From an uncultured Candidatus Saccharibacteria bacterium (GTDB lineage Bacteria; Patescibacteriota; Minisyncoccia; Phycocordibacterales; PALSA-1337): a stretch of 64,000 bases of DNA. The translations under genes and the position numbers were made by a program. Where the stretch lies: positions 149,334 through 213,333 of the forward strand of contig CAYPPJ010000001.1 of the NCBI GenBank assembly GCA_964412585.1, written 5' to 3'. Below, one piece after another: positions 5,968-59,224 of the stretch (the first letter of the stretch is position 1; each line of letters opens with the position of its first letter). The notes beneath the pieces were generated by a model. It did no database searches. It had not been told where the DNA came from and saw nothing but the letters and a program-made list of their open reading frames with translations.

Positions 5968-7797
5968 TTACAGCCTCTTTTTATGAGCAACCTCCGCTTT
6001 ACGTAAGGACAACACCTGGCATTTCTTTGCCAATTCAGTTACGCCCGCCATATTCCCTGCTTTCTCAGCCTGTTTAAGTTCTGACATGGTAGAAATAAGT
6101 TCGACACTAATCATGTCTTCTTCAAAATTGACAATAAGTTCCTTCATGTGCCTGTCCCATTCTTTCGCATCACTCCCAAAGACTGCTTCAGCCTCAAAAG
6201 CGAGGTCATTGATCATGGCTTCGACTTGAGCATGTAGTGCGGTATATGAATCACCGGCAATCTTTTGAATTTCGGCTCGGTAATTCTTTCCTTGATCTGG
6301 TGATGATTTTTCAATATGAAATAGAAGGCCAAAGAGACGACGTGAAATGAGGTCGAGTTGAATGGGGACTCCTCCGACAGCACTACCTCCCCCGGACACG
6401 CCGTCGACCTCTGCTGAGGTCGCGGCTGGTTCTCGGCCGCCTTCGCGGCCTCCGAAGCGTCCGGTTGAGGTAGTGCCTGCCGGAGTCGCCCCTCCAACTT
6501 GAGCCGCCTCAACTTTAACTTTCTTCAAGTCATCCCATACTGCCGCCTCAGATATATTCGTCTTGTCCGAAATCATTTTCACAAAATGTGCCTGATCCAT
6601 ACGACTATCAATGCGCGCCAAAAATGGAAATACACGCTCTCGAAGTCCACGGCCAATCTTTCGTGGATCTGGAATATCACGCATGACATTGCCAAGCTCA
6701 AATTCGATAATTGGTTTTGCCGCCCTCAACGCTTGTTTCCAATCTTCGGGATTGTGGAGCACCAAATCAGCTGGATCCTTGCCACCGACCAGGTCTGCAA
6801 TCTTCACATCCATACCCATCGAAAGCGCGATACCGGCGGCGCGCATCGCAGCTTTTCTACCCGCACTGTCGGAATCAAACGCGATAATGACATTGGGCGA
6901 CAGACGACGCACAAGACCGAGATTGCTGACTGCCCCACTTTCGCTAAAAGACTCATCGGTCAGTGCGGTACCTGAAGATGCAACAGTATTCTTGATACCC
7001 GCTTGATGTGACATGACCAAGTCCATTTGCCCTTCGACCATGATAGTGTAATTCATGCGACGAATGTCACTCTTTGCTTTATCGAGTCCATAGAGCACGA
7101 GAGATTTGTCATACAATGGAGTATCCGGGCTATTCAAGTATTTTGCTGATTTTCCGTCGTCTTTTAGTATGCGGCCTGAAAATGCAATAACACGGCCACT
7201 CGAATCTGATATGGGAAACATCACACGACCACGAAAACGATCGTAAAACTTACCATCATCTGTCTTCTTGCCCAGCCCCGCCTTTTCAATAAGCATGTCA
7301 GAGTATTTCTTGACTCTCAGATGATCAATGAGCGATTGCCACCCTTCGGGAGCCCAGCCAATGCGGAACTCTTGGCGTGTTGCATCATTAATGCCGCGTT
7401 TCTTCACATATTCTTTTACCTCCTTATTCTTCGTAAATTGATCCTCAAAAAAAAGTGCTGCGGCTTCCATGATCTCAAAAAGCCTATCTCGCTCGCCGTC
7501 CGCTTTTTTATCAAAAGTTAGTTGCACTCCCGCTCGTTCTGCCAACACTTTTAACGCTCCACGAAAATCAAGCCCCTCAAACTGCTCGACGAAAGTGAAA
7601 ATATCACCTTTCGCATTGCAGCCAAAACAGTAGTACCCACCACGATCCGGAGACACGAAAAAAGAAGGCGTCTTTTCATTATGGAAAGGACACTTGGCCT
7701 TGAAGGCATTGCCAGATTTTTCCAGCTTGAGATACTGACCAATCACTTCATTGACTGGTAGACGCTCTTTGATTTGTTCGACAATAGTCCTATTCAT
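5968..7797 (-). CDS. dnaG: DNA primase DnaG
   Basis: Zinc finger CPFHNEKTPSFFV...CFGC, TOPRIM region, and a C-terminal domain. It lies immediately upstream of rpoD in the classic operon order. Confidence 0.9.
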   Translation of the reverse strand: MNRTIVEQIKERLPVNEVIGQYLKLEKSGNAFKAKCPFHNEKTPSFFVSPDRGGYYCFGCNAKGDIFTFVEQFEGLDFRGALKVLAERAGVQLTFDKKADGERDRLFEIMEAAALFFEDQFTKNKEVKEYVKKRGINDATRQEFRIGWAPEGWQSLIDHLRVKKYSDMLIEKAGLGKKTDDGKFYDRFRGRVMFPISDSSGRVIAFSGRILKDDGKSAKYLNSPDTPLYDKSLVLYGLDKAKSDIRRMNYTIMVEGQMDLVMSHQAGIKNTVASSGTALTDESFSESGAVSNLGLVRRLSPNVIIAFDSDSAGRKAAMRAAGIALSMGMDVKIADLVGGKDPADLVLHNPEDWKQALRAAKPIIEFELGNVMRDIPDPRKIGRGLRERVFPFLARIDSRMDQAHFVKMISDKTNISEAAVWDDLKKVKVEAAQVGGATPAGTTSTGRFGGREGGREPAATSAEVDGVSGGGSAVGGVPIQLDLISRRLFGLLFHIEKSSPDQGKNYRAEIQKIAGDSYTALHAQVEAMINDLAFEAEAVFGSDAKEWDRHMKELIVNFEEDMISVELISTMSELKQAEKAGNMAGVTELAKKCQVLSLRKAEVAHKKRL

Positions 7798-31912: not shown

Positions 31913-33061
31913 ATGTATATATTAGGCATCGAGACATCCTGCGATGAAACCGCCCTGGCTCTGATTGAGACGCGCGGCTCTGGTGACACTTTCGAGTGTC
32001 GTGTCCTTTCTTCGCTCATACACTCTCAAGCCGAACTCCATAGTCCGTATGGTGGTGTATTTCCTACGCTTGCAAAGCGCGAGCATGAAAAGAACTTGCC
32101 GATACTATTAAAAGAATTGATGGCCACCACCTCCAGTGTAAAAATTGACGCGATCGCCGTTACTGAAGGACCTGGCCTCGAACCGGCATTGTGGACTGGT
32201 ATCGTTTTTGCTGAACAATTGGCCAAGGAATGGAATGTACCGATTATTCCAGTCAATCATATGGAAGGACATGTGATCGGATCACTGTTGAAGTCAGATG
32301 CTCCACAAGGAGAATGGCAATCGTTACTTCCCCTCAATATGCCTGCGTTGGCATTACTCATCAGTGGTGGGCATACAGAGCTGGTAACCATTGAGCGTGG
32401 AGAGGAACGGATGGAGCACACATCCTCTCCGAGCTTGCGGGCGCTTCGCTGGTCGCATTCCTCAGCTCTTCGAGGACGTGTGCTCCACCCGTTCCGATAC
32501 ACTATTATAGGTCAAACCAAAGACGATGCTGTCGGTGAAGCATTCGATAAGACTGCGCGGCTTCTCGGTATCCCATATCCAGGTGGACCACGTCTATCTG
32601 CACTCGCGCAAGAAGCACGATCAGAAAAAATAGAATCACCGGTCAAACTCCCCCGCCCCATGATTTCTAGTAAGGATTTGGATTTTTCATTTTCAGGACT
32701 CAAAACTGCTGTCTTGTATGCTGTTCGCGATGCAGAGTCCACAGGCACCTTTACTGACACGTTCAAAAAAGGGCTGGCTCGAGAGTTTGAAGATGCGGTC
32801 GTTGAGACACTAAGCGTAAAACTGCGCAAAGCTATAGACCAGGTTGGGGCTCAAACAGTCATTATTGGGGGTGGCGTGAGCGCAAATATGGCACTACGGA
32901 CTCAATTTGAGGCTATTGCAGCAGAATATGGCATACCGCTCTATCAACCCTCCCGACACATTTCAGGTGACAATGCGCTCATGATTGCGCTTGCTGGCGC
33001 ATTCAATATACCTACAGATCGTGCACTCAAGGCACATGGGACGAAACGGCTTGGAAACTAA
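31913..33061 (+). CDS. tsaD: tRNA N6-adenosine threonylcarbamoyltransferase TsaD, with ~31-aa in-frame insertion
   Basis: MYILGIETSCDET, HMEGHV, SGGHTEL...DDAVGEAFDKTARLLG. Extra segment RGEERMEHTSSPSLRALRWSHSSALRGRVLHPF lies between GGHTEL and the conserved GxT.DDA motif. Confidence 0.85.
   Translation: MYILGIETSCDETALALIETRGSGDTFECRVLSSLIHSQAELHSPYGGVFPTLAKREHEKNLPILLKELMATTSSVKIDAIAVTEGPGLEPALWTGIVFAEQLAKEWNVPIIPVNHMEGHVIGSLLKSDAPQGEWQSLLPLNMPALALLISGGHTELVTIERGEERMEHTSSPSLRALRWSHSSALRGRVLHPFRYTIIGQTKDDAVGEAFDKTARLLGIPYPGGPRLSALAQEARSEKIESPVKLPRPMISSKDLDFSFSGLKTAVLYAVRDAESTGTFTDTFKKGLAREFEDAVVETLSVKLRKAIDQVGAQTVIIGGGVSANMALRTQFEAIAAEYGIPLYQPSRHISGDNALMIALAGAFNIPTDRALKAHGTKRLGN
32404..32495. 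repeat. 92-bp element bounded by 18-bp inverted repeats (GGAACGGATGGAGCACAC / GTGTGCTCCACCCGTTCC, 17/18) inserted in-frame in tsaD
   Basis: Inverted repeats read directly from the sequence. Coincides with the non-homologous protein insert. Confidence 0.5.
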
Positions 33062-34175: not shown

Positions 34176-35297
34176 TCAGAGGTCGGGAGGTGGTGCTGAC
34201 CACGTCCGACGCGCTTTGAGGCGGAAATACCGTTCCGAATTGACGCTCGGGTAGTCACGGTAGCCCTGACTCCCCAGTTGGAGCGACTCGCCAATGATTT
34301 TGAGCCATGGAGCTCCTGTAAGGTTCTCCGCCGACTCGATGTCGTAGGAGAAGCTATACTGGCCACCGATCATGACGACCCGCGCCATGGTGGGCGTATA
34401 GCGGTATGCAAGCAATGATGGCACTGCAGCAACCGCGAGCTCACTGGCGACCGTGGCGTCATTGCTGACCAGTTCAGCATGTACCCAGGGCACCGGCGTC
34501 GTCGCGAATTGATCCATCACATCAGTGAAGTCACCCGGCTGGTTTCCAGTAATATAAACGCTGGAGCCAAACCGAGTAAAGTAATCGATGTGCACCTGGT
34601 GTGCATATACAGGTGACGGCTGACTGCCGTCGTACACGGTATCATCACCGCCAGCCACCACTTTTCCGAGGGAAGAATTCCACGCACTGTCGAGTACACC
34701 ATTTGGGCCATAATCGACGCCAATATAGGTGAAACTGAACTGAAGTGGAGTGCCGTCCGCCGAATTGGTGCTGACCGAGAAATAACTGGGTGCAATATTG
34801 GTGATGGAAGTGGTGAGCCGAACGAAGAAATCATTCGGGTTACCTTTCCCCGCCACCGAAATGACCCAGCGGTGACCATGTTCGTCACTGGCAACATTGT
34901 TCGTGGGAGCCGGAGCGCCCATAAAACTTTTTGCCAGCGTGACAGTCCCATCAAACCATTGAAGCCCATAATTCGGCCCCCACGTTTGTGGAACGCGGTA
35001 CCATGCGGCCGGCGTTATCATCCGGTCCGTCGGCACATCGCCACCCCACATGCCCTTCACTGTATTGACACGACTTTGCGTCAGATGAGGAGATGAGAGG
35101 CTGCACATCGAGGCGATATAGATCGCACTCTCCCCAAGAGGAGCTCGCGGTGCAGGTTGGAGTTCAAGCCGGATAGGCTTGTTGACCGATTTGGGATAGG
35201 GGACGTTGTCATCCCCTCCGTTCACGACCACCAAGGTGGCCGCGTGAGTCGCCAAGGCGCATAAAAGCGCTAGTGTGACCAGCAGGTTTGTTTTCAT
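34176..35297 (-). CDS. secreted hypothetical protein (C-terminal shared module), GC-rich
   Basis: Start set at MKTNLLVTLALLCALATHA (signal peptide). C-terminus is ...IESAENLTGAPWLKIIG...ERYFRLKA. Confidence 0.55.
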   Translation of the reverse strand: MKTNLLVTLALLCALATHAATLVVVNGGDDNVPYPKSVNKPIRLELQPAPRAPLGESAIYIASMCSLSSPHLTQSRVNTVKGMWGGDVPTDRMITPAAWYRVPQTWGPNYGLQWFDGTVTLAKSFMGAPAPTNNVASDEHGHRWVISVAGKGNPNDFFVRLTTSITNIAPSYFSVSTNSADGTPLQFSFTYIGVDYGPNGVLDSAWNSSLGKVVAGGDDTVYDGSQPSPVYAHQVHIDYFTRFGSSVYITGNQPGDFTDVMDQFATTPVPWVHAELVSNDATVASELAVAAVPSLLAYRYTPTMARVVMIGGQYSFSYDIESAENLTGAPWLKIIGESLQLGSQGYRDYPSVNSERYFRLKARRTWSAPPPDL

Positions 35298-35497
35298 TTG
35301 TAGGTGCTCCACCTCACAGTATACGTATGCGCCCATTCGGGGCGCATCAAGCATGGTGTTCAAGCTCCGTAGACCGAAATTTGTGATGAGGTGGTTCCCT
35401 TGCTTTCTAGCAAAGAATTACCTTCTTGTCAAGGTCCTCTCATAGTGAACTGGGCTATGAACAGGCGCCTTGCAGGACGATTTGGTATAATGATTTC

Positions 35498-57834: not shown

Positions 57835-57976
57835 TGCCAGACCGAGTACTTCTACAAAAAACGTCCTATTACGGGCGTTTTTTGTATATTGACTAAGTGC
57901 TATAATATGTGGTATAATATACAGGTAGTGATGGATTTTTTACAGTCAAATCAACAACAAACCTGGAGAGAAAACA

Positions 57977-59224
57977 ATGAAAAGAATGATCATCGTGGTA
58001 GCACTCATGTTGAGTGTTACCTCCCAAGCAGCCCAGTTGTACCAGCTCGTCGTGCTTGACGACGGCACCAACGAAAGCTGCGCCTACGGCGTAAACAACT
58101 TCGGTTTCAGCGTCGGCTACAAGAAAGTGGCTGGCGTAATGAAGCCCTGTTTGTGGACACCAGCACGTGGGTACCTGGAACTACCGAGAGCCGTGCAGGC
58201 AACAGATCCGCACGGAATTGCTTACGCAATCAATGACAAGTTCAGTGTCGTCGGTACGTACGGTGCCACCAATGTCTCATCCCACCGAATCGACGTGGGA
58301 GCAGTCGTTGGTTGGAATTGGGATGGAGAGATGGGTCAGTTCAGCACCAAAGCTCTTGCCGACGGAATGATTGGCAACTCCCGAGACATCAATTCCAACG
58401 GAGATGCCGCCTGCACAAGGTACGGATACGCGTGGTGTGCGTGTATTGATAACATGTACACCGATGCGGTCCAGTATTCGTGTGCGTTCTCTGGCTCTGC
58501 GTGCTACGGCATCAATGAGCAAGGAAATGCTGTTGGACAGCGGTATTCGTACTACGCCAATGCAAACGTTCCGATTTACTACCGGAAAAATTCCGATGGA
58601 TCCTATGCATCAACCTCGAGTGACGGAATGTTTCTAGACATAGGCAACAGCGCCTGCTATGACATCAACTCGAATAACGTTGCTGTAGGCTCATCGGATC
58701 AGGCTGGCTTCTATTGGGAACCGGACAAATACTCATTGAACATGTTCCCCATTTCTACGCGTTGTTACTCCATAAATAACGCCAGCACGATCGTCGGTAG
58801 TAGCAATGGAGTTGCTTGTATGTGGGAAAAAGGGACAAACGGCTCGTACAAGTGCACCGACTTGAACAAGTTGGCGACGAGTACTATACCAGGAATCGTG
58901 ATGCGGAAGGCGTTCCGGATCAGTGACGCTGGCCAAATCGTCGGCCAGTGCGTAAACACAAACACGGGCGTTCAAAGCGCCTTCATGCTGACGCCCGCCG
59001 TACGTGCACCACGATGCCTCAAGAAGGCCCCGAACAACCAGCTCGAATTCAATTGGCTGGTAACCGAAGGACACACTTATGCGTTTCGTTTCAGCGAAGA
59101 CCTCAAGTCGTGGGTGTCCTATCCCGACTTGTACTACGCCGACACGAGCACAGATGTAAGTGTCTTTTTCTCCATCGATGACATGCCTAAAGCGTTCATC
59201 GACATCGTGGATACGACCCCGTAA
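57977..59224 (+). CDS. secreted HAF-family extracellular repeat protein
   Basis: Signal peptide, then about 7 repeats of the A.GIN..G..VG type (YGVNNFGFSVGY, AYAINDKFSVVGTY, CYGINEQGNAVGQRY, CYDINSNNVAVGSS, CYSINNASTIVGSS, AFRISDAGQIVGQ). Confidence 0.65.
   Translation: MKRMIIVVALMLSVTSQAAQLYQLVVLDDGTNESCAYGVNNFGFSVGYKKVAGVMKPCLWTPARGYLELPRAVQATDPHGIAYAINDKFSVVGTYGATNVSSHRIDVGAVVGWNWDGEMGQFSTKALADGMIGNSRDINSNGDAACTRYGYAWCACIDNMYTDAVQYSCAFSGSACYGINEQGNAVGQRYSYYANANVPIYYRKNSDGSYASTSSDGMFLDIGNSACYDINSNNVAVGSSDQAGFYWEPDKYSLNMFPISTRCYSINNASTIVGSSNGVACMWEKGTNGSYKCTDLNKLATSTIPGIVMRKAFRISDAGQIVGQCVNTNTGVQSAFMLTPAVRAPRCLKKAPNNQLEFNWLVTEGHTYAFRFSEDLKSWVSYPDLYYADTSTDVSVFFSIDDMPKAFIDIVDTTP

Follow-up and report, generated by a model that had tools for sequence, protein, structure and literature searches.

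An in-frame palindrome in tsaD, probably an old copy of a dispersed hairpin repeat family of Patescibacteria

How an essential gene comes to carry a long DNA palindrome within its reading frame is the question raised by tsaD in the stretch of DNA analysed here (the window: 64 kb of contig CAYPPJ010000001.1, from an assembly labelled as an uncultured Candidatus Saccharibacteria bacterium). The gene lies at 31913-33061 on the forward strand, stop codon included, and was recognised from the list of open reading frames (ORFs) as a 382-residue ORF; its homologues contain Pfam domain PF00814 and are annotated as TsaD or N6-L-threonylcarbamoyladenine synthase, and there is a match in the Protein Data Bank (PDB) to E. 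coli TsaD (4wq5, E 2.6e-67). In frame within it, at 32404-32495, sits a 92-nt hairpin. We consider it probable that this segment is an old, translated-through copy of a dispersed, non-coding hairpin repeat family of Patescibacteria (Paceibacteria-type genomes) that behaves in the manner of the Rickettsia palindromic elements (RPEs).

The 92-bp segment is as an earlier note on this DNA described it, with 18-nt arms, GGAACGGATGGAGCACAC (32404-32421) and GTGTGCTCCACCCGTTCC (32478-32495), that pair at 17 of 18 positions, but the inverted repeat extends further, to 39-nt arms (32397-32435 and 32464-32502) that are 79% complementary. With up to three mismatches the 18-mer occurs at two sites in the window, against a chance expectation of 0.05, and both are arms of the hairpin. 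Its RNA fold reaches -59.6 kcal/mol (z -6.9; 0 of 200 shuffles as good) and its DNA fold -33.3 kcal/mol (z -6.3). When 4260 overlapping windows of 110 nt are ranked by stability (mean -23.5, sd 6.8), the hairpin comes second, behind a palindrome in dnaG that is considered below. The element is also richer in G+C (63%) than the rest of tsaD (48%) or the window as a whole (46.5%). An assembly artefact is unlikely, because 11 contigs, from three sources, are on record with the identical TsaD protein.

What unites this hairpin with others is the core at its apex, TGCGGGCGCTTCGCTGGTCGCATTCCTC (32436-32463, forward strand), which is the family signature in the seven tsaD copies and in the copies found by genome scan. 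A scan for the core pattern in one genome per species of the Genome Taxonomy Database (GTDB) returned at least 119 loci, and about 25 of these, all in low-GC Patescibacteria assemblies, have the core as the tip of a long, near-perfect hairpin, with an arm sequence of its own in each copy. The dispersed multi-copy family that the earlier note envisaged thus exists, with the core at no fewer than 25 places beyond tsaD in at least 13 Patescibacteria genomes, but the 18-bp inverted repeat is not its signature: the arms change from copy to copy, and it is the central loop that is conserved instead.

A covariance model built from 26 copies separates the family from its background: copies from Patescibacteria are matched along their whole length at 45-86 bits, whereas the matches in Actinomycetota and similar high-GC assemblies reach at most 29 bits over the core alone. 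The model matches the tsaD hairpin as a complete element at 32404-32495, its core-sense strand being the tsaD strand (cmsearch 66.5 bits, E 5e-21, full model), and finds exactly this one copy in the window, the next best match scoring 11 bits. It also picks up degenerate copies that the pattern had missed (L035:181, L057:492, L002:14815 and L023:3797). At least five pattern-matched copies are present in genome JBAZRG01, together with a sixth (L057:492-602) found by the model alone, and five other genomes hold two to three copies each, as lower bounds. Copies measure 65-163 nt, and the family is small, non-coding and multi-copy per genome.

Searches of Rfam 15 at the gathering threshold returned only six tRNAs in the window, and permissive searches with the window and the L121 copies gave only sub-threshold matches to microRNA precursors and leaders, that is, to generic hairpins, so that no described RNA family, self-cleaving ribozymes included, is matched. 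A chimeric query of core-encoded peptides had no match in the protein database, and a literature search, which was not exhaustive, found no account of such elements in Patescibacteria; provisionally, the repeat family appears to be undescribed. A match on a viral contig of 72% G+C was considered as a sign of phage origin and dismissed as chance, since the covariance model does not match it. The assemblies of the carriers are labelled Paceibacterota, Paceibacteria, Taylorbacteria, 'uncultured bacterium' and in some cases 'Candidatus Saccharibacteria' (L028, L031, L104, L121). The tsaD region of L031 is the same, letter for letter, as one in a genome with a TsaD of the Paceibacteria type, and the automated Saccharibacteria label of this metagenome-assembled carrier genome is open to doubt.

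The anatomy of the element can be followed inwards from its ends. The outer stem, P1, has 18-68 nt per arm across the family and a sequence specific to each copy; in tsaD its left arm, which includes the first 18-mer, spans 32404-32427 (from the fold, and from P1 columns that covary among the 26 copies) and its right arm spans 32472-32495 (from the sequence and the inverted-repeat search), where the last codons, CCG TTC, encode Pro-Phe just before a conserved YTIIG strand. P1 is followed by an unpaired, pyrimidine-rich internal loop of about 3x3 nt, placed by the fold and the copy alignment with TCC on the left (32428-32430) and TTC on the right (32469-32471); in most copies TCC, TAC or TTC stands opposite TAC, TCT or TTC, so that the loop recurs across copies rather than being 'repaired' to a perfect palindrome. 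Within it lies P2, a helix of 4-6 bp, here GAGCT (32431-32435) paired with AGCTC (32464-32468) as indicated by the fold and by covariation (alignment columns 29-32 with 64-67), which is what the earlier note had seen as an internal palindromic segment. P2 closes the apical core of 28-31 nt, which may form a small hairpin of its own, P3, whose loop differs in size between copies.

The stems covary. In the 26-copy alignment 86.9% of cells are paired, compared with 33-48% when the partners are slid, and none of 500 shuffles reaches the covariation score observed for P1 and P2. P2 is 98% paired and all four of its pairs change on both sides, switching between CG, AU, GC and UA; the P3 stem is invariant in all copies, and covariation accordingly neither supports nor refutes it. 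It is important to recognise that this signal is not strand-specific, because a DNA palindrome gives the same covariation on both strands, and that mismatches in P1, counted on the core-sense strand, include 21 G.U and 20 A.C. In two cases arm pairing has outlived the core: in the P0003 genome L002:14815-14907, which lies some 4 kb downstream of tsaD, has near-perfect 30-nt arms around a decayed core (CTCAAAGCGCT...CATTTTCGG), and L057:492-602 has near-perfect 30-nt arms around a core interrupted by a 26-nt insertion, which suggests that arm complementarity is kept by a process independent of the core.

In the protein, the hairpin corresponds to a surface loop, as the earlier note supposed. 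Residues 161-194 (34 residues, ...IERGEERMEHTSSPSLRALRWSHSSALRGRVLHPF, codons 32393-32494 on the forward strand) replace the 4-residue turn 146-149 of E. coli TsaD 4wq5, the phmmer alignment breaking at query residues 160/195 against chain residues 145/150. The surplus is therefore about 30 residues, close to the 31 previously estimated, although the peptide quoted with that estimate has 33. An AlphaFold2 model of TsaD (mean predicted local distance difference test score, pLDDT, 84.3) places strands at 155-162 and 194-202 on either side of a coil, with pLDDT below 50 for residues 167-189, and so indicates that the extra loop would be a disordered surface turn of a beta-hairpin.

Among 30 close TsaDs that we aligned, all from Patescibacteria/Parcubacteria-type genomes, the turn between the motifs GGHTELV.I and F.YTIIGQTKDDAVGEAF varies greatly in length, and across relatives it measures 15-55 residues. 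In six long-loop relatives the DNA at this position also folds into a hairpin (-49 to -64 kcal/mol), whereas that of a seventh (L001) is decayed. The core is found at the same tsaD site in six other Patescibacteria with 57-87% TsaD protein identity, oriented as in the window in L002 and L007 and opposite in L001, L003, L005 and L006. Common to the tsaD copies is a central TGCGGGCGCT-(1-3 nt)-CGCTGG-(5-8 nt)-TCCTC, while the arms are not shared apart from their termini, RAACGG...CCGTTY, which copies outside tsaD lack. One core subtype, B, is restricted to the P0004/P0006/P0010 clade of TsaDs. The peptides that the core encodes (LRALRWS, PAGADRWLPILG, PRMGSQRLAPAG or RGLEPAKRPQA) are wholly different between copies, and because the core is read in four combinations of frame and orientation across the seven carriers, selection on the loop peptide, and with it domestication at the level of the protein, is unlikely.

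The element is present in 7 of the 116 TsaD homologues that have both flanking motifs and absent from the other 109, and on the TsaD tree carriers are scattered among empty sister sequences. Relatives without the insertion thus exist, as the earlier note expected, and they include an empty sequence (L210) 96.8% identical to a filled one (L003) and another (L207) 87% identical to L005. The recent hit that the note entertained is not what we see, since TsaDs with as little as 57% identity carry the same element at this site, nor do these orthologues carry a homologous segment stripped of inverted repeats: the tsaD copies form hairpins. A metagenome scan for TsaD loci yielded only relatives at most 48% identical, none with the core. 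As a separate matter, a second TsaD insertion, of about 40-55 residues, occurs in the subclade P0015, P0017, P0021-P0025, P0028, P0030 and P0031 just before the IDAIAVTEGPG motif (...F[RK]xE[FY]xxQNxDL...FL..., columns 97-155 of the TsaD alignment); it is absent from the TsaD of the window, is conserved in protein and looks like a protein-level insertion rather than a palindrome.

The tsaD insertion does preserve the reading frame, as had been claimed, and in this it resembles the other intragenic copies. These are found in DnaE (two genomes), SMC, Tgt, GyrB and ArgRS as well as TsaD (seven copies), and every one examined (tsaD 7, dnaE 2, smc, tgt, gyrB and argS) keeps the frame and contains no stop codon, as would be expected only if intragenic copies are translated. 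With respect to its host gene the core may point in either direction. Among the 18 copies between genes, 13 start between -18 and +29 nt from a stop codon, and L073 and L092 each contain the end of the gene upstream. The genes beside copies are housekeeping genes (MurB, RuvB, RuvC, YebC, PilB-like and TPR proteins). The core was also considered as a Shine-Dalgarno sequence with a start codon, and this was rejected on its sequence. A further candidate lies in the linker of the DnaG homologue P0148, where ...ARGLVASDQRPQGDE... (RGLVASDQRPQ) resembles, by eye, one translation of the reverse strand of the core, IRGWVASDQRPQD; judged from this resemblance, the dnaG of P0148 probably contains an in-frame copy of the same element.

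Spread, loss and inversion of copies can all be followed at individual loci. L058 and L057:492-602 lie on different contigs of one genome and, if the 26-nt core insertion in one of them is set aside, share 96% identity in arms and core; L056 and L057 are 88% identical. Such near-duplicates show that the family spreads duplicatively. Beyond their shared 33-nt arms, L058:5050-5172 and L057:487-607 carry palindromic extensions specific to each locus (AACCAAAG/CTTTGGTT as opposed to CGTAGA/TCTACG), which would mean either that insertion takes place in the middle of dyads already present or that an inserted palindrome is later extended at its outer ends. Clean loss or gain is seen in tsaD itself. 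The filled and empty sequences L003 and L210 differ by one 90-nt indel that comprises the whole palindrome (GATGGT-ATCA-ACTACACC in L210, GATGGT-TCTG[88-nt palindrome]GC-ACTACACC in L003), and since the arms of L003 are only about 83% complementary, we read the pair as the recent loss of an old copy. Near the second filled and empty pair, L005 and L207, a third sequence, L208, keeps arm-like remnants without a core. That the arms might be inverted copies of the host flank, given that the right arm always ends on host Pro-Phe codons, finds no support in the L003/L210 indel, which contains both arms, although the two 96%-identical copies do differ in the palindromic extensions at their own loci.

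Inversion affects the centre. Between L005 and L007 the arms are homologous, but the block that they enclose (core, P2 and internal loop) is turned round, and the same in-place inversion separates the window from L001 in tsaD and L073 from L092 at an intergenic locus. There is no orientation polymorphism in the four sequences of the P0024 cluster or the 11 contigs with P0001, each set showing a single orientation, and fast flipping was rejected on the evidence of the P0024 cluster.

Several observations weigh against an old, dispersed and passively translated repeat and have to be set beside it. We found no transposase in the 8-kb neighbourhoods of copies and no gene family recurring near them (all-versus-all comparison of ORFs around 25 copies, and Pfam searches between paired copies). 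There is no target-site duplication, the L003/L210 comparison containing no direct repeat and none being evident in 26 flank pairs, and no terminal sequence is shared among the 26 copies, the ends of the palindrome differing in each and only recent duplicates sharing arms. For the window's own genome, one copy in 64 kb is all that is counted. Some of the core invariance among the copies from the genome scan follows from the search pattern itself, and the evidence free of that bias comes from the tsaD copies, found through protein homology alone. Simple vertical descent fits poorly with the core subtypes of the window (GGTCGCA) and L001 (GGCTCCG), which differ although the proteins are 87% identical. 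Finally, at orthologous loci the core has changed far less than one would expect of a passenger in decay. In pairs of tsaD copies core identity is 0.70-0.98 (42/43 between L005 and L007), compared with 0.52-0.70 for arms and 0.25-0.46, which is saturated, for synonymous third positions; in dnaE (L028 and L111) the core is identical at 41/43 positions, the arms at about 60% and synonymous third positions at 0.41; and at the intergenic locus of L073 and L092 the core is identical at 42/43, the arms at about 60% and synonymous third positions of the flanking genes at 0.29-0.41. In both of the latter pairs core positions outside the search pattern are also nearly identical. Such an excess implies that the apex is selected in place, or that conversion from other copies, or re-insertion, renews it again and again. 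That such a function should be universal is disfavoured by copies with intact arms and decayed or interrupted cores, by the many TsaDs without the element, and by the difference in core subtype between the window and L001.

Selection at each locus, with the folded apex acting as a nucleic-acid signal, overlaps with the explanation that we prefer, and we judge it somewhat unlikely, both in this general form and for the signals that might be meant: a hairpin to which a protein binds, in mRNA or single-stranded DNA, and by which transcripts are ended or stabilised, a site of RNase III-type processing, or a replication or recombination signal. The tsaD copy would then persist for what it does. Near-identity of the core at three independent orthologous loci with saturated synonymous sites, recurrence of the unpaired internal loop and P2 geometry across copies, the covarying stems and the 13 intergenic copies that abut stop codons all favour it; but both core orientations occur at the same locus in different species, and a strand-specific RNA role within the tsaD mRNA would for that reason be hard to maintain. 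Nor does it sit well with the equality of G.U and A.C mismatches in P1, the intact arms around decayed or interrupted cores (L002:14815, L057:492), the 109 TsaD relatives without the element and the lack of any matching Rfam family. The more specific proposal, that the conserved apex (with its fixed internal loop and P2) is a protein-recognised signal kept by selection locus by locus, and hence a new class of structured element, is offered tentatively and with more doubt than conviction. If true, the element would be recognised by its folded loop rather than its ends, would be seated at gene 3' ends and tolerated in essential genes, and would have as its partner a lineage-specific hairpin-binding enzyme, whether transposase, recombinase or RNA-processing factor. 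It is unlikely that the tsaD copies are not orthologous at all, the turn being instead a hot spot struck independently and fairly recently by a currently active element. The scatter of carriers among empty sisters would suit such a history, as would arms and core that are both more alike than synonymous sites, the incongruent core subtypes of the window and L001, and the mobility evident from the 96%-identical copies L058 and L057:492-602. Independent hits would not, however, lead one to expect arm termini peculiar to the tsaD copies, a subtype B confined to one TsaD clade, arms in L003 so far from perfect beside an empty sister 96.8% identical (an old copy recently lost) or arm-like remnants in L208.

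The remaining alternatives concern what the loop might do for its host. A phase-variation switch, in which flips of the core alternate the peptide displayed by TsaD or a regulatory state, would account for both orientations at one tsaD site, each keeping the frame, yet we regard it as very improbable: flips are seen between species only, the P0024 cluster and the P0001 contigs each show one orientation, there is no invertase gene nearby, and the loop is disordered and read in four frames. We give hardly more credence than that, and if anything less, to an intron-like removal in which the hairpin is excised from the mRNA and the ends religated to give a protein without the loop; a long perfect stem could be a substrate for a double-strand RNase, but every intragenic copy examined is in frame and free of stops, as one would expect, from sequence, only of translated copies. 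Least credible of all, to the point of being negligible, is a lineage-specific TsaD loop whose DNA is palindromic incidentally or, as the earlier note allowed, by chance. The length of the turn does vary across TsaD relatives, but the fold statistics exclude chance, other copies exist with the same DNA core in unrelated genes and in intergenic DNA, and the peptide differs completely between orientations; the copies found by genome scan and their matches to the covariance model refute it.

For an old repeat copy, translated through, the following course of events may be proposed. The element would have entered an ancestor of this TsaD clade, been inherited vertically and been cleanly lost several times, the tsaD copy being simply a tolerated passenger of translation. 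The centre of the element may have been turned round where it stands, the arms exchanging or a template switch taking place between them, and arm pairing may be kept by compensatory change, through either selection or hairpin-templated repair. Movement would depend on a putative trans-acting enzyme that recognises the folded apex, and an enzyme that reads the apex in this way would explain why it is the apex, and not the termini, that is conserved. The seat beside stop codons may reflect tolerance there, a role as terminator or stabiliser, or a preference for existing hairpins.

The window contains other stable folds, none of which the model of the tsaD element matches. The most stable is the dnaG palindrome at 6364-6490 (in the minus-strand ORF 5968-7797, DnaG primase), which is likewise in frame in an essential gene, has about 70% G+C and consists of an outer stem, 6380-6397 with 6459-6476, enclosing two small hairpins (DNA fold -47.3 kcal/mol, z -7.5). 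It encodes ...GTTSTGRFGGREGGREPAATSAEVDGVSGGGSA... in the hypervariable DnaG linker, and is common to the closest DnaG relatives only (78-83% identity), relatives at 75-77% being without it. We considered it as a second copy of the tsaD element and, as the covariance model does not match it, assign it to a different family. The next most stable folds are both intragenic and both reach -53 kcal/mol over 125 nt: 58396-58520, within a 430-residue ORF (57932-59221), and 34381-34505, within a 413-residue minus-strand ORF (34179-35417).

The architecture invites comparison with several known systems in which hairpins are recognised or rearranged. In REP and REPIN elements the arms are conserved REP units with a GTAG motif, the loop varies, and RAYT transposases, which recognise the folded hairpin, mobilise them. 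They share with the present family the dispersal of hairpins at gene 3' ends and a similar putative mechanism of hairpin reading, but here it is the arms that vary and the loop that is conserved, and GTAG is confined to core subtype B, where it is read on the reverse strand; a REP/GTAG identity was rejected on sequence. Integron attC sites, which are recognised as a folded single strand, form imperfect hairpins (57-141 nt) that contain unpaired spacers and bulges and conserve structure more than sequence; their outer R''/R' boxes (RYYYAAC/GTTRRRY) are conserved while the apex varies. The imperfect hairpin with its unpaired spacers or bulges, and a structure conserved beyond sequence, are common to both, but in our family the apex is conserved, the outer ends are, by eye, without RYYYAAC/GTTRRRY and there is no integron context, and attC was likewise rejected on sequence. 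In chloroplast genomes, small loops between short inverted repeats flip between close relatives, and in bacterial quasi-palindromes templated repair keeps arms complementary. Flipped cores and co-evolving arms are reminiscent of both; these are, however, generic mutational processes and not a repeat family with a conserved core.

In behaviour, the closest match appears to lie with the RPEs and other bacterial repeats resembling transposable elements of the miniature inverted-repeat kind (MITEs), an analogy of how the element works rather than of membership. RPEs (Ogata et al. 2000, reviewed in PMC2229807) are hairpin repeats of about 100-150 bp with terminal inverted repeats of about 12 bp, and they too are found both between genes and in frame in conserved housekeeping proteins, where they are tolerated; an RPE-bearing guanylate kinase of Rickettsia is translated and active (PMC2229807). 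Both kinds of element inhabit small, reduced genomes, and in-frame fusion at tolerant sites is found here in TsaD, with its disordered loop, and in DnaE, SMC, Tgt, GyrB and ArgRS. The host phylum is unrelated, however, and the comparison is one of behaviour; in the Patescibacteria family the apical loop is conserved and the stems are copy-specific, and in-place core inversion and clean recurrent loss are documented. ERIC, Correia/NEMIS, RUP and YPAL elements resemble it in being small, in giving long stem-loop transcripts with possible effects on mRNA through the hairpin, and in lying near gene ends with occasional in-frame fusions, but they have conserved termini and mostly TA target duplications (PMC2229807), and we saw neither of these here, nor any related insertion sequence or transposase. 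The MITE-like character given to the tsaD segment in the earlier note therefore holds in part: the family is small, non-coding and multi-copy, but it has no shared terminal repeats and no target-site duplication, and for want of these and of a transposase neighbour membership among classical MITEs is not established.

The locus is in this respect more interesting than a single MITE hit, since it opens onto an apparently undescribed family with an unusual architecture. Bacteria of the candidate phyla radiation (CPR) have tiny, gene-dense genomes usually regarded as repeat-poor, and a family that enters essential genes of replication and translation (tsaD, dnaE, gyrB, smc, tgt, argS) without breaking them adds to Rickettsia a further and independent example of 'selfish DNA in protein-coding genes', the second. 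The reversed pattern of conservation, in which the loop is kept and the stems are free to change as long as they pair, together with the near-identity of cores at saturated orthologous sites and inversions in place, makes this a tractable system in which to ask how hairpins are recognised and moved, how palindromes are maintained or cleanly deleted, and whether they come to serve the host at gene 3' ends. Such inserts account for odd length variation and low-confidence loops in CPR proteins, and they can be annotated with the core pattern and the covariance model.

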